Assembly: GCA_963743305.1 (NCBI GenBank)
Contig: CAVUPH010000014.1
Location: 416,001-480,000 of the forward strand
DNA: 64,000 nucleotides
Origin: an uncultured delta proteobacterium
Lineage (GTDB): Bacteria; Desulfobacterota; RBG-13-43-22
Direction: 5' to 3'
The notes below the pieces were generated by a model. The model was not told where the DNA came from and ran no database searches. It saw nothing but the letters and a program-made list of their open reading frames with translations. Below, one piece after another: positions 25,144 through 62,195 of the stretch; within the stretch, counting starts at the first letter, position 1; each line of letters starts with the position of its first letter. A program made the translations under genes and the position numbers.

Positions 25144-25887
25144 TTAGGAGTTCTGCGGGGTTTTTAAAAACACCTTAATGGCCAGTTCCCGGCCGCTGTC
25201 GGTTAAAAAAGATCGATCAATGATCGCGGCCAGCCGTTCCGGGGATGATGCCTTTTCTTTCTGATTTTCCTCCAGGTTGACGATCAGGTCCGCGTCGTAG
25301 ATCGCTTTGAAATTGATGGTTTCCTTTTCCCGGGGATGATGGTGATGGCCGACTATATCGCAGACCTCCTCGATCAGTTCTTCCCGGGCGCCCAGTTTGG
25401 TCAGGATCTGCCGGGCAATGGGCGGTCCTTCTTCCTCCTGGTAGCGGGCGGCCGTGCTCTGGTATTTCCGTTCCGCCTCATGGATGCCGATGTCGTGCAG
25501 ATAGGCGGCCGAGAGGATCACCGCCGGATTCCCCTTTTCCTTTCTGGCCAGCTCCTCGGCATAGCGGGCCACCCGGGTGGCATGGCCGATCCGTTTGAAA
25601 TCGGTAGTGAAGTAGCGCTTCATTTCAATGGCCACCCGGTCCTTCAGGAGATCCTCTTTTTGGGCGATTAGTTCCGGGGGCAGCCCCCCCAGGCACTGCT
25701 CCGCATGAGGGCAGTAAGAGGCGCAACCGAAATCCATTTGGGGGTTGATGATCCGCTTCCCGCATTTCTTGCAGAGTCGGGTCGTATCATCTTTAAAGAA
25801 TTCGAGCTCGGCACCGCAATGGGGGCATTGGGTCTCGAAGATCGACCCGGGTTTCCAGTAACGGCTGTCCTGTCCTGGGCATTTCAT
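25144..25887 (-). CDS. HD-domain phosphohydrolase with N-terminal Zn-ribbon
   Basis: MKCPGQD...CPHC...CKKC; H...LHDIG...HHH...DAD. Confidence 0.85.
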   Translation of the reverse strand: MKCPGQDSRYWKPGSIFETQCPHCGAELEFFKDDTTRLCKKCGKRIINPQMDFGCASYCPHAEQCLGGLPPELIAQKEDLLKDRVAIEMKRYFTTDFKRIGHATRVARYAEELARKEKGNPAVILSAAYLHDIGIHEAERKYQSTAARYQEEEGPPIARQILTKLGAREELIEEVCDIVGHHHHPREKETINFKAIYDADLIVNLEENQKEKASSPERLAAIIDRSFLTDSGRELAIKVFLKTPQNS

Positions 25888-25992: not shown

Positions 25993-27621
25993 TTATCCCA
26001 ATATCGCCTTGAGATCCTCGTCCGGGGTGGTGATGGGCATGACGTTGAACGTCTTTACCAACACATCCAGGACGTTGGGGGTGATGAAGGCCGGCAGGGA
26101 GGGCCCCAGCCGAATGTTCTTGATCCCCAGGTAAAACAAGGTCAACAAAATGGCTACGGCCTTCTGCTCATACCAGGAAAGGATCATGGACAAGGGCAGG
26201 TCATTGACCCCCACATTAAAGGCCTTGGACAAGGCCACAGCGATCTGGATGGCCGAATAGGCATCGTTGCACTGCCCCACGTCCAGGAGGCGCGGGATCC
26301 CGCCGATGTCGCCCAGGTCTTTGTCGAAGAATCGGAACTTGCCGCAGGCCAGGGTCAGGACCACCGTATCTTTCGGTGCTTTTTCAACGAATTCGGTATA
26401 GTAATTACGTCCGGGTTTGGCCCCGTCGCAGCCGGCCACCAGAAAGAAGTGGCGGATGGCCTTGTTTTTTACGGCCTCGATGACCGCTCCGGCCACACCC
26501 ATGACGGTGTTGCGGCCGAACCCGACCGTGACCGTTTTCCCGTTGCTGTCTTCCGCAAAACCGGGTAAGGCCAACGCCTTTTCAATCACCGGAGCGAAGT
26601 TTTTATCGGCGATATGAGTGACCCCCGGGAAGCCCACCAAGCCGGTGGTGAAAATATTTCCCTGGTAGGATTCCTTGGGCTTCTGGATACAGTTGGTGGT
26701 CATCAGGATGGCCCCGGGAAATTCGCCGAACTCCTTGTGCTGATTCTGCCAGGCCGTGCCGTAATGGCCGTAGAAATGGGCATATTTTTTCAATGCGGGA
26801 TAGCCGTGGGTGGGCAGCATCTCGCCGTGGGTATAAACGTTGATCCCTTTGCCTTCGGTCTGTTTCAGGATCAGTTCCAGGTCTTTCAGGTCATGGCCGG
26901 AAACCAGGATGGCCTTGCCCTTTTTATGCCCTAGGGGAACCTTGGTCGGTACGGGATGTCCGTAGGTTTCCGTATTGGCGGCATCCAGGATTTCCATGGC
27001 TTTTAAATTGGCCTCCCCGCATTTCAAGGTCAGGCCCACCCAGTCGTTCAGGGTCAGGTCTTTGTTCAGGGCGGCGGCCAATCCTTCATGGATAAAGGCA
27101 TAGACGGACTCGTCTTCCTTGCCCAAGATCTGGGCATGGTCAGCGTAAGCGGCGACCCCCTTAATCCCGAAAGTGACGGTCCAAATCAGCGCATGAATGT
27201 CTCTATCCGTAGTGGTGTCTGATTGAATTCCAACCTTCTCTCCTTGGGCGATCATTCCCTCCAGGGTATCGGCCAGGATTAAATTCGCCGGTCCCTTCGG
27301 GAAATCCACTTTTCCGCCGGCCGCTTTTACCTTGGCTTTCAATTTTTCCCGCAGGGCCACGGTCTCTTTCAGTAGAGGAGCGAACCGATCGGCGTCAAAA
27401 TCCACATTGGTCAAGGTCGAAAACAAGGCCTTGACGGTAAAAATATTGGCCTCCGGGTCGCTGATGCCCACCTTGCGGCCTTCCACGGCCACCTGGGACA
27501 ATCCCCGCATGGCATACACCACCAGATCCTGCAGAGCGGCTACTTCGGGTTGCTTCCCGCAGACCCCGACTTTGGTACAGCCTTCCCCTTTGGCGGTTTG
27601 TTCACATTGATAACAAAACAT
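25993..27621 (-). CDS. hcp: hybrid cluster protein (hydroxylamine/NO reductase)
   Basis: MFCYQCEQTAKGEGCTKVGVCGK, SGHDL, THGEML, GCDG, GQCND, SWYEQKA. Confidence 0.97.
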   Translation of the reverse strand: MFCYQCEQTAKGEGCTKVGVCGKQPEVAALQDLVVYAMRGLSQVAVEGRKVGISDPEANIFTVKALFSTLTNVDFDADRFAPLLKETVALREKLKAKVKAAGGKVDFPKGPANLILADTLEGMIAQGEKVGIQSDTTTDRDIHALIWTVTFGIKGVAAYADHAQILGKEDESVYAFIHEGLAAALNKDLTLNDWVGLTLKCGEANLKAMEILDAANTETYGHPVPTKVPLGHKKGKAILVSGHDLKDLELILKQTEGKGINVYTHGEMLPTHGYPALKKYAHFYGHYGTAWQNQHKEFGEFPGAILMTTNCIQKPKESYQGNIFTTGLVGFPGVTHIADKNFAPVIEKALALPGFAEDSNGKTVTVGFGRNTVMGVAGAVIEAVKNKAIRHFFLVAGCDGAKPGRNYYTEFVEKAPKDTVVLTLACGKFRFFDKDLGDIGGIPRLLDVGQCNDAYSAIQIAVALSKAFNVGVNDLPLSMILSWYEQKAVAILLTLFYLGIKNIRLGPSLPAFITPNVLDVLVKTFNVMPITTPDEDLKAILG

Positions 27622-27726
27622 GATCGATCTCCTTTCTTGGTTAAAGTTAGTTTAATTAATTCGGAACCAACAAGGCCCGTTTCAACGTCTTACGGTTAAT
27701 AATAAGGTGATAACGGACGAATTGCC

Positions 27727-27740
27727 TTGATTTAAGTCAA
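27727..27740. promoter_or_regulatory. Crp/Fnr-family (HcpR-like) binding site upstream of hcp
   Basis: TTGAT-TTAA-GTCAA, Fnr-type TTGAT-N4-ATCAA pattern, about 105 bp upstream of hcp. Confidence 0.6.
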
Positions 27741-27899
27741 CAATCGACTTTTATTAGACAAGAAAGAATGGAAACGATATCGATGGTTAATAATTATTAT
27801 TATTTGAAATAAATTAATACATTTGCCAGTGGGCGCAAGTAAGGCCGGAAAATTTTTTTTATTATCCTAATTTTTTTCTTGATTTCTCTTGAAATAAAC

Positions 27900-27919
27900 A
27901 TATAAATGATTATTTATAT
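27900..27919. promoter_or_regulatory. putative ArsR operator (8-4-8 palindrome)
   Basis: ATATAAAT-GATT-ATTTATAT; same arms recur at 33910-33929. Confidence 0.65.
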
Positions 27920-28022
27920 ACTTGTTGCTTCAATGGCTGATTTCAAGAATCAGGAATTTATAATGATCAAAAAGAGCAGAAACAAGATGAAGGGAATAGC
28001 GTCTGAGGCTTTTCCGGAGGAG

Positions 28023-28343
28023 ATGGGAAACCAGACGGAATGGGAACAGTCCCTATCCACGGTGGCTTTCTTAGCCAAAAGTTTGTCGGATGAAAACCGT
28101 TTGCGGGTGCTCATCAGTCTTCGCGAGGGCCGGCTTTCGGTATCCAGCCTGGTAGAGGCTTTACAATTGTCCCAGCCGCTGATTTCCCATCATTTAAAGG
28201 AATTAAAAAGGTCGCTGTTAGTCAAGGTCGAGCGCAATGGGCCTTTTATCTATTACGAACTGGCCGACAAAAGAATCCTTCAGATCATGAAAGACCTGGA
28301 GACCGTGGCCGGGGAATTACTGGCCAACCGTCGAACTTTTTAG
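28023..28343 (+). CDS. tsoR: ArsR/SmtB family repressor heading the selenoprotein operon
   Basis: LSDENRLRVL...LSQPLISHHLKELK...YYEL; GGAGG RBS before ATG 28023; symbol recalled from curated family names, not verified. Confidence 0.85.
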   Translation: MGNQTEWEQSLSTVAFLAKSLSDENRLRVLISLREGRLSVSSLVEALQLSQPLISHHLKELKRSLLVKVERNGPFIYYELADKRILQIMKDLETVAGELLANRRTF

Positions 28344-28358
28344 TCAGGAGAACACCCG

Positions 28359-28814
28359 ATGCCTGGAAAAACGATACTGGAATTTATCGAGAAACTCGAG
28401 CCGGAAAAAGCCTTAAAAGAAATTTCTCTGGCGGTCAAAACCCTTTTCCCCATGCTGGACCAGGAATCCCGTCTGAATTTTGTGGTCAGCCTGATCGGGG
28501 ATGCCGGGGCGGACAAGGTGGCCAGCCTGGTGAACCTCTGACTGGCGGAATGCATGGACGAAGGTGTCGATCCAACCAAGATGTGCCAGAGTTTAGTGGA
28601 TAAGGTCTTTCAATCCAAACAGTTAAGAACCGTGGCCGAACCGGATATTTTAGCGCTTTTTGAAGACTGGCTGGAGGAATTGGAAGAGGAAATCATAAAT
28701 ATGGTAAAAAAGACCGGTTCCGATGATCTGGGGAAGTTGGCCCGAGGATTGGGGTTGTCCCGGGCCGGCGTAAATTTCCTGATCACCAAATTAAAGAGGG
28801 AAGAAAGGATTTAA
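28359..28814 (+). CDS. tsoA: predicted selenoprotein with LULAEC (UxxxC) motif and C-terminal HTH-like region
   Basis: ORFs 28359-28541 and 28554-28814 are in frame and separated only by TGA 28539-28541; SECIS-like hairpin 28555-28574; symbol recalled, not verified. Confidence 0.8.
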
Positions 28815-28848
28815 AAAAGCCCTGACTTTTTCAGTGGAGGTGTTCGTT

Positions 28849-30583
28849 ATGAAGTAGAAAACCATTTTATTGCCGCATTCTCGGTGGCTCTGGTAATCGG
28901 GGCTCTCTGGTTTACCAACCGGGCCGTAACTCCAACGGCGGCTACCTGGGAAGATGTTCTCCAGGAAGCCCAGCGCGGCGGCTATCGGATCATCAAGACG
29001 GATGAGATCTGGGAACGGTATCAAAGAAATCCGCAGGACCTGATGCTGGTGGATACCCGTCAGGAATGGGAATATCGAACCGGACACCTCAAAGGAGCGG
29101 TTAATTTTCCCATGGAACCCACGGCCTGGTCCCGCTGGCGGAAACAGAAGGAGATGGCGACCTTTTTGGGACCCGATAAAAACCGCTTCCTCGTCTTTTA
29201 CTGAGCGGGCTTGACCTGAGTCCGCAGCGACTCCGCAGCCCGGGTGGCTGTCAAACTTGGCTACAAAAATGTATATCGCGATCCCTACGGATTTCCGGAA
29301 TGGCAGGCCAAAGGTTATCCCATCAGCAGCGCTCCGGCCGGCCTGTCCGGGGAAGCGGCCCCTCCCCAGACCCCCGGCCCCTTGTACGGCTGGGCCATGG
29401 TCTGGACCCTGCTGGGCATTTTTGCCGGAGGGATTGCCTTGAACCTGACACCATGTGTCTATCCCATGATCCCTATTACCGTTTCCTATTTTGGAGGGCG
29501 GAGCGGAGAGGGAAAGGGAAAACTATTGACCCATGGCCTGTTATACCTGGGGGGCCTATCGGCCACCAACTCCATTTTGGGGGTTGTCGCGGCCTTGACC
29601 GGTGGTCTTATGGGGGCCATGCTTCAAAACCCGATGGTCCTACTGGTCGTGGCCGCTATTCTGGTTTTTTTCGCCTCCAGCCTCTTCGGGTTTTGGGAAC
29701 TTCGTCTTCCCGGCGGCCTGACCCAGCATGGCTTCCAAATCTTATGCCGGATATTTCGGTTCCCTGTTTATGGGCTTGACGCTGGGCGTGGTGGCCGCAC
29801 CCTGCATCGGTCCTTTCGTTCTCGGACTCTTAACCTGGGTGGCCAGTATGGGGTCCCCATGGCTGGGGTTTATTGTCTTTTTTACCTTGAGCCTGGGCCT
29901 GGGGCTGCCTTTATTTTTTCTGGCCATGTTTTCCGGCAAGATCGAAAAACTACCCCGATCCGGAGAGTGGATGATCTGGGTTCGAAAACTGATGGGCTGG
30001 ATCCTGGTGGGCATGGCAGCCTATTTCATTCGGCCCCTCCTACCTGAAACCGTAGCGGTATTCCTTTTCGTTCTGGTAGCCTTGGGCGCCGGACTGCACC
30101 TCGGCTGGCTGGACAAGTCCCAGGCCGGCTTTCGGGCCTTCGCCTGGATGAAGGGTGGGGCCGGGATCGCCGGTCTGGTGATAGCCACTTTTATCCTGGG
30201 TTCCTGGATGATCCGCGGGCCGGGGGTGGCCTGGAATGCTTATTCGGACAAGCTTCTGGCGGAAGCGGCCCAAAACCGGAAACCGGTCATCATCGATTTC
30301 TATGCCACTTGGTGTACCCCCTGCCGGGAACTGGAGGAAATCACCTTTCACCAGCCTGAGGTGGTCACAAAGGGGAACCGGGATTATATTATGATAAAAG
30401 TGGACGTGACCCAAGCCGGGAACCCACTGAATGAACGGCTTCTCAGTCAGTATGGAATTAAAGGGGTCCCGACTGTGGTTTTTATAGATTCGAGCGGGAA
30501 AGAGCATCTGGAACTTAAGGCTGGTCGATTATCTTCCGCCGGACCAGTTCCTGAAGAAAATGGAAACAATAAATCAAAAATAA
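28849..30583 (+). CDS. tsoB: predicted double-selenocysteine rhodanese / DsbD transmembrane / thioredoxin fusion
   Basis: VFY-TGA-AGLT-TGA-VRSDSAA read through (29202, 29217); LTPC and AAPC DsbD-beta Cys; WCTPC Trx domain; apparent +1 frameshifts at about 29727 and 30517; start region 28849-28884 uncertain; symbol recalled, not verified. Confidence 0.8.
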
Positions 30584-30599
30584 GAACACGGGAGGTTTG

Positions 30600-31109
30600 A
30601 TGGCGTATATAGAAAAATTTTTGGGAAGACGGGTCGAGGTCCCGGAGGATCGACGTTATGTCGTCAAACCGGGACTTTGGGCCAAGGCCGAAGGGGCGGA
30701 GGTGCGATTTGGGTTAACCGAACCGGAGTTGGTATTAGCCGGCGGTGTCAATGACCTGGAATGGCTGGTCTGGGATGGAGAAGAGGTGGAACAGGGACAA
30801 TCCATTGCCATCGCCATCACCGGAAAAATTAAATATATTGACGCTCCCGTAGCCGGGGTCCTGCGGCTGAATCCCGGGATAAAGGAAGCCACGGCCCTCA
30901 TTGCCCGGGACTCCTATGGAGAGGGATGGTTGTTTCAAATCAAAACCAGGTCCGAAGCGAATTTCGCCCTGGAGGAACTGTCTTCGGCTGAAGCCTATGT
31001 AGAGAGCCTCCAAAATTCAGAAGGATGCAAGAATCCGGAAGGACTAAAGGGCGGGGTTTCCGGGATCTGCAAGGCGGTTTATACCGGGATCAAAGAACAA
31101 AAATTTTAG
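30600..31109 (+). CDS. GcvH-like (glycine cleavage H / lipoyl carrier fold) protein with 2-Cys C-terminal extension
   Basis: RRY...LWAK...FGLT...APVAG...DSYGEGWLF. Confidence 0.75.
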   Translation: MAYIEKFLGRRVEVPEDRRYVVKPGLWAKAEGAEVRFGLTEPELVLAGGVNDLEWLVWDGEEVEQGQSIAIAITGKIKYIDAPVAGVLRLNPGIKEATALIARDSYGEGWLFQIKTRSEANFALEELSSAEAYVESLQNSEGCKNPEGLKGGVSGICKAVYTGIKEQKF

Positions 31110-31130
31110 AAAAAAGAAAGGAGAACCCCA

Positions 31131-31448
31131 ATGGTCAAAGTTCGCTGTTTTTATAATGAACCCAATGGAAAGCCTTGAAAGCATTTTCAGGAAATGATGC
31201 CCAGGTTGGGCCAAAAGTACGAAATTGAGGTTGAAATACTATCCAAACCTATAGCTGAATACAATACGGATGAATATTTTGAGTTGGAATTGCCGGTGGC
31301 TCCAGCCATCATGGTGGATGACCAGATCCTGGTGGAAGGCTCCGATGTTTCTGAAGAAAAATTGGAGAACGCCATCCGCGCCAAACTGGGCCTGGAGGCT
31401 ATAGTGATAGAAAAAAAAGGGGTTCTGGGGCGGCTTTTCGGTCGGTAA
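31131..31448 (+). CDS. tsoC: predicted thioredoxin-fold selenoprotein with NEPNGKPU motif
   Basis: RBS AAGGAG and MVKVRCFYNEPNGKP-TGA(31176)-KHFQEMMPRL are in frame with ORF 31194-31448; PVAPAIMV cis-Pro-like loop; SECIS-like hairpin 31199-31211; symbol recalled, not verified. Confidence 0.8.
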
Positions 31449-31472
31449 AGGCCGTCCGACGGGTAGATCTTC

Positions 31473-31638
31473 ATGCCTGGAGCAGAGGTTTTCGACCGGC
31501 AGGCGGAACGGTACGACGCCTGGTTTGAACGGCATCCGCCAGACAATCTTTCATCCGACAAAAGGAACGGAACAGGCGATACCGGTTGAAGAGGGATATG
31601 GCGGGGGGCTCTTTATAGTAATTAAAGCGAATAAATAA
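31473..31638 (+). pseudogene. class I SAM methyltransferase remnant (N- and C-termini only)
   Basis: MPGAEVFDRQAERYDAWFERHP followed in another frame by PVEEGYGGGLFIVIKANK*; core missing. Confidence 0.5.
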
Positions 31639-31653
31639 TAGGGGACAAAATAA

Positions 31654-32355
31654 GTGAAAGGGAAAACCGGTCCAGGAAAAGGGGCTATGGTAAAAGCCTT
31701 GGTATTGGTTGCATTTATTGCCGCTGCGGTATATGTTATTCGCTTTAGCCCGGTTAAAGATTTTTTGACTGTCGAGGCGATGAGACGATTCCTGGACATC
31801 TCCGGGTTTTGGGCGCCGGTGATCTTTATATTGATTTATACGGCTGGGATCTGTCTGTTGGTGCCCGGTTCGCTCCTGACCACCCTCGGGGCGGCGATCT
31901 TCGGGGCCTATTGGGGATTTCTCTACGTCCTGATCGGGGCTGTGCTGGGGGCCACCGCCGCCTTTTTTATCGGCCGGTATCTGGGCCGGGACTTTGCCGC
32001 CTCGATTGTCGGAGACCGGTTGAAGCGTTATGACGAGGCCGTGGAACGCAACGGCTTCGCCACGGTGCTGTATTTGCGACTGATCTATTTCCCTTTCACC
32101 CCGATGAACTTCGGCATGGGCTTGACCCGGGTCCGTTTCCGGGACTACTTCTGGGGCACGGTCCTGGGCATCATTGCCGGGACCTTCATCATTACGTTTT
32201 TTGTGGGAACCATCAAAGAGGTTTGGGCCACCGGAGATTGGTCGCAGCTCCTGTCCTTAAAGCTCGCATTTTCCGTAGCCTTGTTTGCTTTTTCCCTATT
32301 CATACCCAAAATTGTGAAAAAATTTAAAAAGGAGGAGACCCATGCCGACCTGTGA
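31654..32355 (+). CDS. TVP38/TMEM64 (DedA/VTT superfamily) membrane protein
   Basis: VPGS...GAAIFG...G...AFFIGRYLGRD...LRLIYFPF. Confidence 0.88.
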   Translation: MKGKTGPGKGAMVKALVLVAFIAAAVYVIRFSPVKDFLTVEAMRRFLDISGFWAPVIFILIYTAGICLLVPGSLLTTLGAAIFGAYWGFLYVLIGAVLGATAAFFIGRYLGRDFAASIVGDRLKRYDEAVERNGFATVLYLRLIYFPFTPMNFGMGLTRVRFRDYFWGTVLGIIAGTFIITFFVGTIKEVWATGDWSQLLSLKLAFSVALFAFSLFIPKIVKKFKKEETHADL

Positions 32356-32671
32356 GTATGAAGGATTGAAAATCGAGGTGGATGAAGAGGGGTATTTGCT
32401 TAACTTTGATGCTTGGAATGAAAAAGTGGCCTGTGCCCTGGCGGAGAGGGAAGGGATAACCCAGGACTGTCCCCTGAAACCCGAACAAATGGAAATTCTT
32501 AAATTCATCCGGGAATATTATAAGAAATTTGAATCCGTGCCTGTGGTCCGGGCGGTCTGCACCAATGTCCATCAACCTAAAAGTTGCGAGTACCTGCAGT
32601 TTCCCGATCCGCTGATCACCTGTAAAATCGCCGGGATTCCGAAACTGGAGACCGGTTACACCTTGATGTGA
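32342..32671 (+). CDS. TusE/DsrC family sulfur relay protein lacking the terminal Cys
   Basis: VDEEGYL...WNEKVA...FIREYY...FP...CKIAGIPK. Confidence 0.85.
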   Translation: MPTCEYEGLKIEVDEEGYLLNFDAWNEKVACALAEREGITQDCPLKPEQMEILKFIREYYKKFESVPVVRAVCTNVHQPKSCEYLQFPDPLITCKIAGIPKLETGYTLM

Positions 32672-32886
32672 TGACGGCTGACCATTTGAGAGTGGTCGGC
32701 TGTACCGAGCCAACTGCCACTGACTTTGTCTGTGGCAGTTGGCTTACTATCCCTGGGAAGTCAATCAGGGGTAAAGGAGGCCGTAAAAAGCAGGGCTACG
32801 GCCTGTTCATCATTGGCCTGTTCCAGGGTTTGGTCACCCACGTTGGCGACCATCAGGGTGGCTGCCTTCAAATTGAGCCTAATCTC

Positions 32887-33858
32887 TTAGCCGAGTACTC
32901 CAGGGAATTTAATCGCCTGTTTCATCTCAACGTAGTGAGCCGTGGCCAGAGCGGCCGTACAGCCATCGGCAGCGGCGATCACAATCTGATTGGCATACTT
33001 TTGCCTTAGGTCGCCGATGGCGAAGATCCCCGGGATACTGGTCTCGCATTTTTCATCCGTTATGACGTAGCCGCTCTGATTGACTTTAACGCCTGCAGGA
33101 ACGAGCTGGTTATTGGGAGAAAAACCAGCAAAAATGAATACGCCGTCCGTTGAAAGTTCCCTTTTTTCAGCGGTCTCTACATCTTGAAGGGAAACCGCGC
33201 AGACCCCGGATTCATTGGATATAATTTCAGTGACAACTTTCTTAAGAAGAATTTCTATTTTGGGCTCGGCCTGAACGCGCTGCTGGAGGATTCGGCTTCC
33301 CCGGAAAGCATCCCGTCGATGGACCAGGTAGACCCGCTGCGTTATTTTTGAAAGGTAAAGGGCATCCTCAAGGGCCGTATCGCCGCCCCCTACGACTAGT
33401 ACGGTTTTATCCCTGAAAAAGAACCCATCGCAGGTGGCACAGTAAGAGACGCCTTTGCCGAAGTTATCGATTTCCCCGGGAACATCGAGTTTTCGAGCGC
33501 TGCCGCCTGCAGCCAAAATCAAAGCGTGGGCCTGCAGAAGAGCGCCATTAGCCAGACGGACTGAGTGGTATTCAATTCCCGGCTCAATAGACACCACTTC
33601 GTCCTGGATCATTTCCAGGCCATACCCGCGAGCGTGGTTTAAAAATTTATCGCAAAGCTCGAACCCACTTATTTCAATGAATCCAGGATAATTTTCCACC
33701 CCTTTGGTTAAAGCCACCTGGCCGCCAGGCATTCCCTTTTCGATAAGAACCGTTTTTAGGGCCGCCCTCATGGCATAGATGCCTGCGGTAAGACCGGCCG
33801 GACCACCCCCAATAATTATAGAATCATAAAATTTGCTATTCGCAATTAAATTGCTCAT
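32887..33858 (-). CDS. trxB: thioredoxin-disulfide reductase
   Basis: IIGGGPAGLTA, GVSYCATCDG, VGGGDTA, HRRD, GIFAIGD. Confidence 0.95.
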   Translation of the reverse strand: MSNLIANSKFYDSIIIGGGPAGLTAGIYAMRAALKTVLIEKGMPGGQVALTKGVENYPGFIEISGFELCDKFLNHARGYGLEMIQDEVVSIEPGIEYHSVRLANGALLQAHALILAAGGSARKLDVPGEIDNFGKGVSYCATCDGFFFRDKTVLVVGGGDTALEDALYLSKITQRVYLVHRRDAFRGSRILQQRVQAEPKIEILLKKVVTEIISNESGVCAVSLQDVETAEKRELSTDGVFIFAGFSPNNQLVPAGVKVNQSGYVITDEKCETSIPGIFAIGDLRQKYANQIVIAAADGCTAALATAHYVEMKQAIKFPGVLG

Positions 33859-33909
33859 TTTCCCTCCAGCCTGGCCTTGAATTTATCCGGGCAATAAAAA
33901 AACATTTAA

Positions 33910-33929
33910 ATATAAATAGATATTTATAT
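33910..33929. promoter_or_regulatory. putative ArsR operator upstream of trxB
   Basis: ATATAAAT-AGAT-ATTTATAT; arms identical to 27900-27919. Confidence 0.65.
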
Positions 33930-34013: not shown

Positions 34014-35003
34014 TTACTCAAATATTAGTAAAAAATACTGGAAGATATAGCGGACAGCCAGGTAAGTGATGATTACGCCCAAAATTCCTTTGATCCATTT
34101 TTGGGAAACATATTTTTGCGCTCTCGCACCCAGATAAATTCCTATAAATCCACCAGCCCCGAAGAGGAACCCCAGGAACCAATCCGGGGCGGTGGACAAA
34201 CCTGCGGGATGGGGGCTGAAACTGTAAAAGATAACCCCCAAAATGGAAGTAATAAATGTCCCCAGTAGCGCTGCTCCCGCCACGGTGTAAACCGGCAAAT
34301 GAAAAACGGCCACACAAAAAGGGGCGATGATGGCCCCGCCTCCGATTCCGTAAGTCCCGCCTATAATGCCTACGAGTAAGGCCAAAAGAAACATGGCCGG
34401 CGTGCTGAAGGAAAAACGCTCTCCCCAAAATTCGTATTCGACCCGGCGCAGGGAAAAATAAACGGTTTTGACAATCGCTTCAGGCGGAAGGCCGGCGCTT
34501 AAGCGGGCATTTTGGCCAGCCTTCATTTTTATTACTCTTCGATTGAATTTATCCTCGAGGGCCTTCATGGTTTTTTTGCCTTTTTGGGATCGGGGCGTCA
34601 TTTCATAAAGCATGCGAAGGCCGAGGTACAGGAGAACGCAACCGACAAAGAATTTGAAGGCCCGAGGGTCCGGAAGGTAGAGGACCCGAATATAGTAGCC
34701 GAAAAAAACCCCCGGCAGGGTTCCGGTAATGACGATCCAGGTCAGGGGCCAGGCCATGCGCCCCTCTTTAAGGTACCGGTAAACCCCGCTCGGAATGGCT
34801 ACAATGTTATAGACGAAGTTAGTCCCACTGACCGAAGGGGTACTATAATGCAGGTAGCTCACCTGAAAAGGCAGCAGTAAAAAGGCCCCGGAAACCCCGC
34901 CCATGGAGGTGAAGAAGGAAACCACCAGGGCCACTAAGGGAGGGAGGAAGAGATAGGTCTCAACTCCGGAAACCGAGAACGTCCAATAAAGGCTGTCCAT
35001 CAT
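34014..35003 (-). CDS. sulfite exporter TauE/SafE family protein
   Basis: SMGGVSGAFLLLP and GTYGIGGGAIIAP repeats; multi-TM. Confidence 0.88.
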   Translation of the reverse strand: MMDSLYWTFSVSGVETYLFLPPLVALVVSFFTSMGGVSGAFLLLPFQVSYLHYSTPSVSGTNFVYNIVAIPSGVYRYLKEGRMAWPLTWIVITGTLPGVFFGYYIRVLYLPDPRAFKFFVGCVLLYLGLRMLYEMTPRSQKGKKTMKALEDKFNRRVIKMKAGQNARLSAGLPPEAIVKTVYFSLRRVEYEFWGERFSFSTPAMFLLALLVGIIGGTYGIGGGAIIAPFCVAVFHLPVYTVAGAALLGTFITSILGVIFYSFSPHPAGLSTAPDWFLGFLFGAGGFIGIYLGARAQKYVSQKWIKGILGVIITYLAVRYIFQYFLLIFE

Positions 35004-61577: not shown

Positions 61578-61756
61578 TTTCTACCCTCCCTTGTTTTTCG
61601 TAGTCATCCCGGAATAAGTCCTGGACTCGGGAAGCTCCGCCCAGCACTGGAATCCGGCCTTCGCCAGAATAACGACCTGATTAAACCAGATAATACCCTG
61701 TTATCATGCTTCCTGGGTATCCGAAGCGGATATGGGGAAATTATTTGTATTGGAGA

Positions 61757-62195
61757 TTACCTTTTGCGAAACTCCAGATTCTCCAGGGTTGGAAAAGCGA
61801 TATATGGTTCAACCGCTCCCCCGAGCAGCACCAGTCCTTGGGATTCCAGCCAGGCGTGGGCCTTCACCCGCTTTTCGGATTCGATCCTTTAATACCCCGA
61901 TGCGTAGGTCCGTCTGATGTCCATGTCGAGCCAGAAAGACTTGCCCGGCAATGGCCCGCACCAGGCAGGTGGCCCGGGGCACATTTCTCCCGGCGGTATC
62001 CATCGCCCCCAGCAATCGATTCAGTGGAAATGAAGCCGGTCCTCGTTTGATCGGGGCCCGCTTGATCAGGGTCAGCATCGTCCGGAAAGGAAGAAGCCGC
62101 AAACCGCATTTCGCCACCCAGAGGAACAGCAACGCTTTTATCAAGAGTCCCTTTTCGGATAAAGGCAGCTTTAGAAAATTATGCACCTTTTTCAT
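61757..62195 (-). CDS. lasso peptide B2 leader peptidase (transglutaminase-like; +1 frameshift near 61885)
   Basis: TCLVRAIA...LRIGV then VKAHAWLE in shifted frame. Confidence 0.82.

Follow-up and report, generated by a model that had tools for sequence, protein, structure and literature searches.

The 64,000-nucleotide (nt) stretch of DNA analyzed here, referred to as the window, covers positions 416,001 to 480,000 of contig CAVUPH010000014.1 from an uncultured delta proteobacterium (assembly GCA_963743305.1; GTDB lineage Desulfobacterota, RBG-13-43-22), and carries the four genes of a Tso operon, namely: tsoR, tsoA, tsoB and tsoC. The source genome is denoted G000 and the contig C14, while G001, G002 and G003 are congeners. 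On the + strand, the region of approximately 28.3-31.5 kb is shredded by table-11 open reading frame (ORF) calling, and the pieces are joined once TGA is read as a residue. In-frame TGA codons lie at 28539, 29202, 29217 and 31176, exactly where the initial annotation of this DNA had placed them, and the frame is open across each. Its gene order, which runs from an ArsR-type regulator to a DsrC/TusE protein followed by a convergent trxB, is borne out by NCBIfam and Pfam matches. The genes are tightly packed: tsoR ends 15 nt 5′ of tsoA, there are further gaps of 69 and 21 nt and a single longer one of 205 nt, and in two places adjacent genes overlap, by 4 and 14 nt (Table 1).

Each of the four tso genes is matched by a curated family model. 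TsoR scores 154.9 bits against NF045707 (cut-off 115), with residues 48-145 matched; TsoA scores 227.4 bits against NF045695 (cut-off 170) and bears the motif L-U-L-A-E-C; and TsoC, with the motif N-E-P-N-G-K-P-U, scores 144.8 bits against NF045708 (cut-off 45). TsoB, whose U-x4-U motif reads F-Y-U-A-G-L-T-U, is matched by NF045694 in two halves that abut at profile position 290/291, with 486.6 bits over profile 11-290 and 482.2 bits over 291-554. As a single protein it falls below the 805-bit cut-off in the window, compared with 994-1012 bits for the congeners' proteins, which are encoded in one frame. The names TsoA, TsoB, TsoC and TsoR, given when the locus was first annotated, are the right ones for these families.

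The system is also known from the literature. In a 2026 review (PMC13188914), TsoA (LULAxC, 1 selenocysteine (Sec)), TsoB (UxxxxU, 2 Sec), TsoC (GxxU, 1 Sec), TsoX and TsoY are tabulated, and the ‘three selenoprotein operon’ (Tso) is named with citation of Haft and Tolstoy 2025 (mSystems 10:e0141724). The same four families, motifs and Sec count (1 + 2 + 1) are found in the window with no difference in kind, the only departure being a tsoB gene that is broken in frame as assembled. To call the operon ‘hidden’, as had been done, is therefore not justified, given that it is published and named. A search of the genome for TsoX and TsoY gave no match, but none was obtained in any control genome either, hence the search is uninformative. 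A text search of the available literature turned up no experimental work on the Tso operon. We consider it very probable that the window holds an ordinary member of the published Tso system of Thermodesulfobacteriota, and this is the best explanation of the locus as a whole.

Table 1. Genes and candidate control elements of the Tso locus, in window positions.
Feature	Position	Strand	Remarks
Candidate TsoR operator, 22-nt palindrome CATATAAA-N6-TTTATATA	27899..27920		Overlaps weak sigma-70-like match 27895-27922
tsoR, ArsR/SmtB-type regulator	27906..28343	+	NF045707, Pfam HTH_5
tsoA, LULAEC selenoprotein	28359..28814	+	NF045695; Sec codon 28539-28541
tsoA hairpin (predicted)	28555..28574	+	7 pairs, loop AGGUG; begins 16 nt after U of UGA
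tsoB, rhodanese-DsbD-Trx fusion	28849..30600	+	NF045694 in two halves; Sec codons 29202-29204, 29217-29219
tsoB hairpin 1 (predicted)	29218..29233	+	GAGUC, 6-nt loop, GACUC; 5′ arm begins inside second UGA; candidate SECIS for first UGA
tsoB hairpin 2 (predicted)	29235..29251	+	GCAGCC, loop CGGGU, GGCUGU; candidate SECIS for second UGA
GcvH-related protein, accessory	30597..31109	+	NF045810 GcvH_rel_desulf
tsoC, NEPxGxxU selenoprotein (here NEPNGKPU)	31131..31448	+	NF045708; Sec codon 31176-31178
tsoC hairpin (predicted)	31199..31211	+	GCCCA, loop GGU, UGGGC
Class-I-type methyltransferase remnant	31449..31653	+	Ends match intact congener ORF
VTT/TVP38 (DedA-superfamily) membrane protein	31654..32355	+	Pfam PF09335, 93.3 bits
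DsrC/TusE-like protein without C-terminal Cys	32342..32671	+	TIGR03342
trxB, thioredoxin-disulfide reductase, convergent	32887..33858	-	TIGR01292, 358.6 bits (cut-off 343.45)

In order to compare the UGA sites across relatives, we used the locus from 10 related genomes together with 79 further loci found with the TsoA alignment; in the TsoA search, 369 stretches matched the pattern, 310 of these encode a relative, and 80 of the 310 were kept. The sites were counted in the 90 fetched loci and the window itself; the search patterns required the motif but accepted either U or C, and some contigs are present twice. TGA occupies the tsoA site in 91/91 sequences, both tsoB positions in 56/56 and the tsoC site in 76/76, one of the last (L100) being a spurious motif match. 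The check for homologues with TAA or TAG at these sites, as proposed at the outset, returned none in the window and the 90 loci.

Single-domain rhodaneses (PDB 6mxv, and the yeast proteins RDL1, 3d1p, and RDL2, 6k6r) share their fold with the N-terminal domain of TsoB, and in these three solved structures the residue aligned with the first U is the catalytic Cys (F-Y-C), in the column that follows the F-Y strand; the suggestion of a TGA at the position of a catalytic Cys holds here. TsoB differs from them in an active-site loop that is two residues longer, in the second Sec within this loop, and in its fusion to a membrane electron conduit. Among 1.84 billion library representatives, 147 relatives of TsoC were found, of which 134 begin at or after residue 17, i.e. 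past the TGA, in the way that gene callers truncate Sec forms; standard ORF calling in effect shreds Tso genes. Of the 13 relatives that span the U column, three have Cys there and four have Ser, in a CxxS variant; the others have Arg (2), Glu (1) or Trp (3), the last being consistent with a TGA called as Trp.

Some loci vary in the number or the state of these genes. L073 has two tsoR-tsoA-tsoB-tsoC sets in tandem, and many loci (L034, L041, L060 and others) have two tsoC copies, both with the TGA. In L083 (3658-4101), a tsoA homologue has an in-frame stop other than TGA in the conserved D-P-x-L-L, which marks either a pseudogene or a sequencing error.

Downstream of each UGA lies a predicted hairpin resembling a selenocysteine insertion sequence (SECIS). 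Counted from the U of the respective UGA, the four hairpins begin 16-23 nt further on, and they are 98.3-99.5% paired across the relatives. For the tsoA hairpin, 74 distinct sequences give 518 cells, of which 99.4% are paired, and its pair 20-33 occurs as A-U in 45, G-C in 28 and G-U in one of the sequences; its covariation score was reached by 0/500 shuffles, and controls slid along the alignment were paired at just 6-43%. In tsoB, the two hairpins are jointly 98.8% paired. Hairpin 1 is 98.3% paired in 47 sequences, and the synonymous sites of its stem are 98-100% conserved while those of its loop vary. In hairpin 2, four pairs show two-sided changes, for example at columns 37-53 (G-C 32, A-U 14, C-G 1) and 44-50 (C-G 43, U-A 3). 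The tsoC hairpin has 98.7% of 310 cells paired (62 sequences), with two-sided changes in 2 pairs (3 cells). In tsoA and tsoC, and in hairpin 2 of tsoB, the hairpin loop contains GGU, and third-codon conservation in the stems is 0.90, 0.88 and 0.97 for tsoA, tsoB and tsoC, respectively, versus 0.70, 0.63 and 0.58 outside them. Compensatory changes are thus present in the alignments of three of the four predicted hairpins, namely: tsoA, tsoB hairpin 2 and tsoC.

At the level of sequence, the comparison shows all four in-frame UGAs to be Sec codons, each with its own downstream hairpin. The claim of three selenoprotein genes with four Sec codons is upheld by this conservation and by the curated families. 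By comparison of relatives, the hairpin data favor a separate hairpin for every UGA, even for the two UGAs of tsoB, which are only 15 nt apart and have one each.

Several observations weigh against this reading of the locus. When the 62-65 nt after each UGA are folded as single sequences, the z values (-1.13, -0.68, -0.20 and +0.29) are no better than those of shuffles, so that the case for SECIS elements rests on the comparison between relatives. In tsoB hairpin 1, no covarying pair was seen in the 47 sequences. No Cys form of TsoA or TsoB was present in the sample, although the loci were found via TsoA and the patterns required the motif. Scans of 27600-33000 for promoters and terminators gave results at chance, with 5 promoters found vs. 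4.8 expected and 9 terminators vs. 8.6 expected. To these are added the missing selA and the lesions of tsoB, which are taken up below.

A reading of the TGAs as ordinary stops, with the pieces as separate small genes or chance open frames, could draw on these single-sequence folds and on the public gene calls, most of which start the TsoC relatives past the TGA. However, the curated family models bridge each TGA with scores above cut-off, amino-acid conservation continues through the TGA in all relatives, the hairpins covary, and no relative has TAA or TAG at these sites. Conservation and covariation together exclude ordinary stops, to which we assign practically no probability.

Outside the window, we searched the genome for the machinery that decodes UGA as Sec, as the initial annotation had proposed; selB, selC and selD are present, and selA was not found. 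The tRNA-Sec, with anticodon UCA, lies at G000:C6:26761-26857 (75.1 bits), and SelB scores 363.5 bits. The selD gene, at G000:C26:75850-76774 on the - strand, consists of two overlapping pieces in different frames, covering profile 2-135 (with one in-frame TGA) and 127-310. The search for selA gave 0 matches in this metagenome-assembled genome, whose 90.12% completeness over 43 contigs means that absence is not shown. Since the genome is incomplete to this extent, and since SelA is found in 18/20 relatives, 3/3 congeners included, the missing selA is read as an assembly gap.

The genome also contains a second pair of Sec-related genes. Approximately 315 kb upstream of the window on the same contig, at G000:C14:98758-100799 (L014:1498-1590), a Sec-like tRNA (50.8 bits to Rfam tRNA-Sec) immediately precedes a second SelB-like gene, for which profile 1-342 is matched with 261.7 bits and 524-580 in another piece. 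The anticodon of this tRNA is GCA (Cys). According to Mukai et al. 2017 (NAR 45:2776, PMC5389517), pairs of a selC* tRNA-Cys with selB* have been described for Syntrophobacterales and Desulfobacterales, some of them with a UCA anticodon. The G000 pair matches the layout reported there; it is separate from the Tso locus and cannot read UGA. Its presence, and the UCA anticodon of some of the described pairs, could be taken to mean that the UGAs of the Tso genes are read as Cys rather than Sec. We regard this as highly improbable, given that a GCA anticodon reads UGY and not UGA, and that a normal tRNA-Sec (UCA), SelB and SelD all occur in the genome. Decoding as Sec is the reading retained below.

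As assembled, the two halves of tsoB are in different frames, in open pieces at 28884-29730 and 29728-30600. The statement that coding continues with no indel stands at the TGAs themselves, but fails for tsoB as a whole, which has a +1 frameshift at 29722-29724 and a damaged 5′ end. The frameshift is caused by an extra C, 505 nt past the second TGA: the window alone reads CCC at 29722-29724, whereas 11/11 copies from relatives have two bases there. The 3/3 metagenome contig sets that cover 29722 are also without the extra base; they stem from relatives of approximately 88-99% likeness, did not reach the damaged 5′ end of tsoB, and speak only to the extra C in those relatives. In a search of sequencing runs, none held a quarter of the stretch (best share 0.21). 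Contigs of an RNA library (X19) match parts of the stretch, mostly at <95% likeness, and nothing on expression was drawn from them. At the 5′ end, a ribosome-binding site is followed by ATG AAG TAG (28849-28857), so that a stop stands at 28855-28857, and comparison with a congener shows the loss of one base near 28866. Because of these 5′ lesions, the longest tsoB frame begins at GTG 28884, without the Lys-rich start and half of the anchor that are seen in all relatives.

Frame breaks of this kind are common in these assemblies. In a frame-switch survey against 200 kb of G002, 361/403 ORFs (≥120 codons) matched G000 at ≥70% identity, and 26 frame switches between adjacent tblastn segments were counted for G002 vs. 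G000 and 18 in the reverse comparison, over approximately 160-200 kb; these counts include opposite-strand shadow ORFs, and distinct sites are fewer than 26 and 18. Raw blastn indels between G000 and G002 (181, of which 162 are not a multiple of three) mix intergenic and compensated changes and were not used as an error rate. The presence of frame switches both ways suggests indel errors in both the G000 and the G002 assembly. Moreover, two frames are also occupied by selD in G000 and by selA in both G001 and G003. Elsewhere in the window, further frame switches relative to G002 were noted near 25731, 40650, 41900, 54664, 57945 and 58790 and at 61665-61880 (all within C14:441731-477880).

Since frame breaks are common in these assemblies and the extra C falls in a short homopolymer, we favor assembly error over a real pseudogene as the likelier cause of the broken tsoB. 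It should be noted that tsoB has three lesions and that one of them, the TAG, is a substitution, which is untypical of homopolymer error and counts against this view. The TAG substitution is the best argument for a real pseudogene, which we consider a lesser but appreciable possibility. A broader form of this idea, namely that a genuine Tso operon is decaying here, with tsoB as a pseudogene, the methyltransferase deleted and Sec synthesis maybe impaired, appears unlikely. It would account for three independent lesions in tsoB (the stop at codon 3 and two frameshifts), for the internal deletion in the methyltransferase, for the failure to find selA, and for the selD in two frames. Against it, frame breaks are frequent between G000 and G002 and split selA even in G001 and G003; a genome of this completeness may simply have left selA unassembled; tsoR, tsoA, the gcvH-like gene, tsoC, the VTT gene and the dsrC-like gene align full-length with the congeners at 85-93% identity; and all four TGAs and their hairpins are intact.

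The composition of the locus was compared in the 79 loci by tblastn (E ≤1e-6), which gives lower bounds, several loci ending at a contig edge. Both tsoR and tsoA are found in 79 of the loci, tsoC in 59, tsoB in 47 (N half) or 42 (C half), and the VTT gene in 25, followed by hcp (8), the gcvH-like gene (7), trxB (6), the dsrC-like gene (5) and tauE (5). In the congeners, the synteny is tsoR-tsoA-tsoB-(gcvH-like)-tsoC-(VTT)-dsrC-like. The comparison shows that, in this genus, genes for a GcvH-like protein, a VTT protein and a DsrC-like protein that lacks the Cys have joined the Tso core, as had a methyltransferase gene that is by now deleted.

A TsoB-less form of the system is represented by 16/79 loci, in which an FAD-dependent SQR-like oxidoreductase (type III SQR selenoprotein model, 91.6 bits, far below the cut-off of 525) is encoded directly after tsoC; in 10 of the 16, a NapH-like Fe-S membrane protein comes next. 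These 16 loci indicate that the invariant part of the system is tsoR-tsoA, and that the membrane redox module is exchangeable. Examples of the TsoB-less form are L075 (8818-10738), L068, L076, L077, L079, L088, L104, L106 and L108. Further on in L075, ORFs for DsbB-like, DsbA-like and TlpA-like proteins can be recognized by eye.

The accessory genes of the window were examined one by one. The DsrC-like protein scores 65.6 bits against TIGR03342 (cut-off 53.5) over profile 2-103 of 108 only, and its C-terminus reads ...CKIAGIPKLETGYTLM before the stop, with ...TGY[T/D]LM likewise in relatives. In DsrC/TusE proteins, the penultimate Cys is the sulfur carrier. The DsrC/TusE family model is matched here above its cut-off, but the protein lacks the flexible C-terminal arm and, with it, the penultimate Cys. 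A Sec at the end of this protein (TGA TGA after ...LM) was considered and rejected, the stop being TAA or TAG in 4/7 copies. The GcvH-related protein scores 252.4 bits (cut-off 150) and has a Cys-bearing C-terminal tail; when aligned by BLASTP with the genuine GcvH of the same genome, its lipoyl-lysine column is occupied by Gly76, with Lys at +1 and +3. A GcvH-family gene beside a DsbD-like or thioredoxin-like gene is also found at G000:C8:113875-117550 and G000:C27:9009-9846, and such pairs may recur in this organism.

The methyltransferase remnant, described as such from the start, is real, given that both of its ends match an intact ORF in a congener. What is left of the gene is approximately 23 N-terminal and approximately 33 C-terminal codons out of 210, the full gene being intact in G003 (L032:6604-7236); the latter matches methyltransferase models weakly, at best with 39.6 bits (E 3.8e-10), which is below cut-off. 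What lies between tsoC and the VTT gene differs among genomes: a BioB/HydE-like radical SAM ORF occupies this place in G008 (L038:6172-7161, weak matches), the methyltransferase does so in G003 and its remnant in the window, and G001 has nothing there.

These results bear on the model put forward in the initial annotation, in which a selenium-dependent pathway would move electrons from NADPH/TrxB across the membrane to handle sulfane sulfur, selenium or metalloid species. As a conserved part of the system, the NADPH/TrxB input is not supported: trxB lies near tsoA in just 6/79 loci, and neither G001 nor G002, the two congeners in which this flank is present, has it at this place. A sulfur-relay role of the DsrC/TusE protein is likewise not supported, given the loss of its C-terminal Cys and the presence of the gene in just 5/79 loci, and the GcvH-like gene, at 7/79 loci, is a lineage-specific accessory. 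The sulfur-relay and NADPH/TrxB parts of the model thus rest on lineage-specific neighbours.

Two flanking genes were also noted. At 25993-27621 on the - strand, divergent from tsoR, lies a gene for a 542-residue protein with an N-terminal CxxCxxxxxxxC start, by eye a putative hybrid-cluster protein, and at 34014-35003, also on the - strand, a TauE/SafE-type exporter is encoded (Pfam, 135.4 bits). Both are kept beside the operon in the congeners and are rare elsewhere (8/79 and 5/79 loci, respectively).

With regard to the control of the operon, a palindrome of the form CATATAAA-N6-TTTATATG occurs ≤200 nt upstream of tsoR in 34/77 loci, the motif searched being CATATAA, 2-14 nt, TTATATG with at most one mismatch per half; in 200 rounds of mononucleotide shuffling, the mean was 0.98 and the maximum 4. 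We regard this palindrome as a candidate operator. In the window, the true start of tsoR is probably downstream of the annotated one, at the Met at 28023, with the conserved core beginning near 28047. TsoR is without a conserved Cys, and none is present in the aligned part of 27/79 homologues.

TsoA, which has a later M-C-Q after its LULAEC motif, is all-helical in its AlphaFold model (pLDDT 71.8, pTM 0.38, from 46 sequences; an earlier model from 10 sequences had pLDDT 67.6), and its conserved U/C region is poorly predicted (pLDDT <50). When this model was compared with the PDB by Foldseek, the best match had an E of 0.25, and none reached 0.001. Its last approximately 45 residues show weak local matches to winged-helix/helix-turn-helix domains (Zalpha, MntR, Lrp/AsnC and DeoR; root-mean-square deviation 1.1-2.3 Å).

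These features leave room for another view of TsoA, as a selenium-based sensing partner or co-regulator of the Cys-less TsoR instead of a relay enzyme. The tsoR-tsoA pair would then be a regulatory module that senses redox state or a ligand via U-x3-C and the second Cys, acts at the CATATAAA-N6-TTTATATG palindrome, and switches on whichever membrane redox module the lineage has, be it TsoB or the pair of SQR-like flavoprotein and NapH-like protein. The position of tsoR directly upstream of tsoA in 79/79 loci, while tsoB, tsoC and others vary, would fit such a module, as would the lack of a conserved Cys in TsoR and the modeled C-terminus of TsoA, which may resemble winged-helix/helix-turn-helix domains. 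On the other hand, the 79/79 figure follows in part from the TsoA-based search, the model is mediocre with its U/C region at low confidence, and the Foldseek search returned nothing at its threshold. We consider this view quite improbable. If it were true, TsoA would be a selenoprotein with a role in transcription control, of which no earlier case is known to us.

Pfam recognizes in TsoB a Rhodanese domain (PF00581), DsbD_TM in both halves, and a Thioredoxin domain. In the intact TsoB of G001 (577 residues), a hydropathy scan indicates an N-terminal anchor at 5-23, the rhodanese domain, approximately eight transmembrane segments at 183-455, and the thioredoxin domain. The sole Cys or Sec residues of this protein are U119, U124, C203, C319, C489 and C492, of which C203 and C319 lie in predicted transmembrane segments. 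By its predicted layout, TsoB follows the DsbD plan of three redox pairs, which makes the electron transfer across the membrane that was envisaged earlier a fair inference. An even number of helices lies between the rhodanese and thioredoxin domains, so that both would be on the same side of the membrane, and the Lys-rich N-terminus suggests that this side is the periplasm.

The likeness to DsbD (ScsB/CcdA class) consists of DsbD_TM with one Cys per half, a C-terminal thioredoxin domain with CxxC (WCTPC), and the order of the pairs from N-terminal to membrane to C-terminal. In contrast, the N-terminal domain of TsoB is a two-Sec rhodanese, while that of DsbD is an immunoglobulin-like alpha domain with two Cys; TsoB scores only 84.8 and 143 bits against PRK00293 (cut-off 330), and it has a membrane anchor instead of a proven cleaved signal peptide. 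TsoA and TsoC, which have no signal sequence, would be cytoplasmic. The Pfam scan found no family for either of them. TsoC matches the thioredoxin-like model TIGR00412 weakly (17.5 bits, below the cut-off of 62), and the position of its motif, which is CxxS or xxxC in relatives, fits a thioredoxin-type CxxC site.

We tentatively propose, with more doubt than confidence, that TsoB works like DsbD, as a relay to a Sec-Sec rhodanese loop that acts outside the cytoplasm. Electrons would come from a cytoplasmic thiol or selenol donor, either thioredoxin or the cytoplasmic TsoC or TsoA, and would pass across the membrane through the C203/C319 pair. This membrane pair would reduce the CTPC of the periplasmic thioredoxin domain, which in turn would reduce the U-U loop of the rhodanese domain, a stand-in for the alpha domain of DsbD, and the substrate of this loop would be a chalcogen or metalloid located outside the cytoplasm. 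The conserved palindrome would be the site at which TsoR represses the operon. Two points stand against the proposal. Its donor, substrate and topology are all inferred from the order of the domains together with a hydropathy scan, and to name sulfane sulfur, selenium or a metalloid as the substrate is a guess. In addition, the 16/79 loci without TsoB mean that a DsbD-type route is not universal to Tso.

Taken together, the window adds one member to a family that is catalogued yet experimentally untouched, and nothing here would surprise selenoprotein specialists. What the analysis adds is the hairpin support for each UGA, the candidate operator, the TsoB-less form, and corrections concerning tsoB, the DsrC-like gene and trxB; some of these additions may already stand in Haft and Tolstoy 2025. 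The value of the locus is practical. The parts that can be tested are the candidate operator, the DsbD-like relay of three pairs to a Sec-Sec rhodanese loop, and the TsoB-less form with its SQR-like flavoprotein, and the cultured carriers among the loci found, namely: Desulfosarcina widdelii PP31, Hydrosulfovibrio ferrireducens CB1MN and Desulforhopalus sp. IMCC35007, make such tests feasible.

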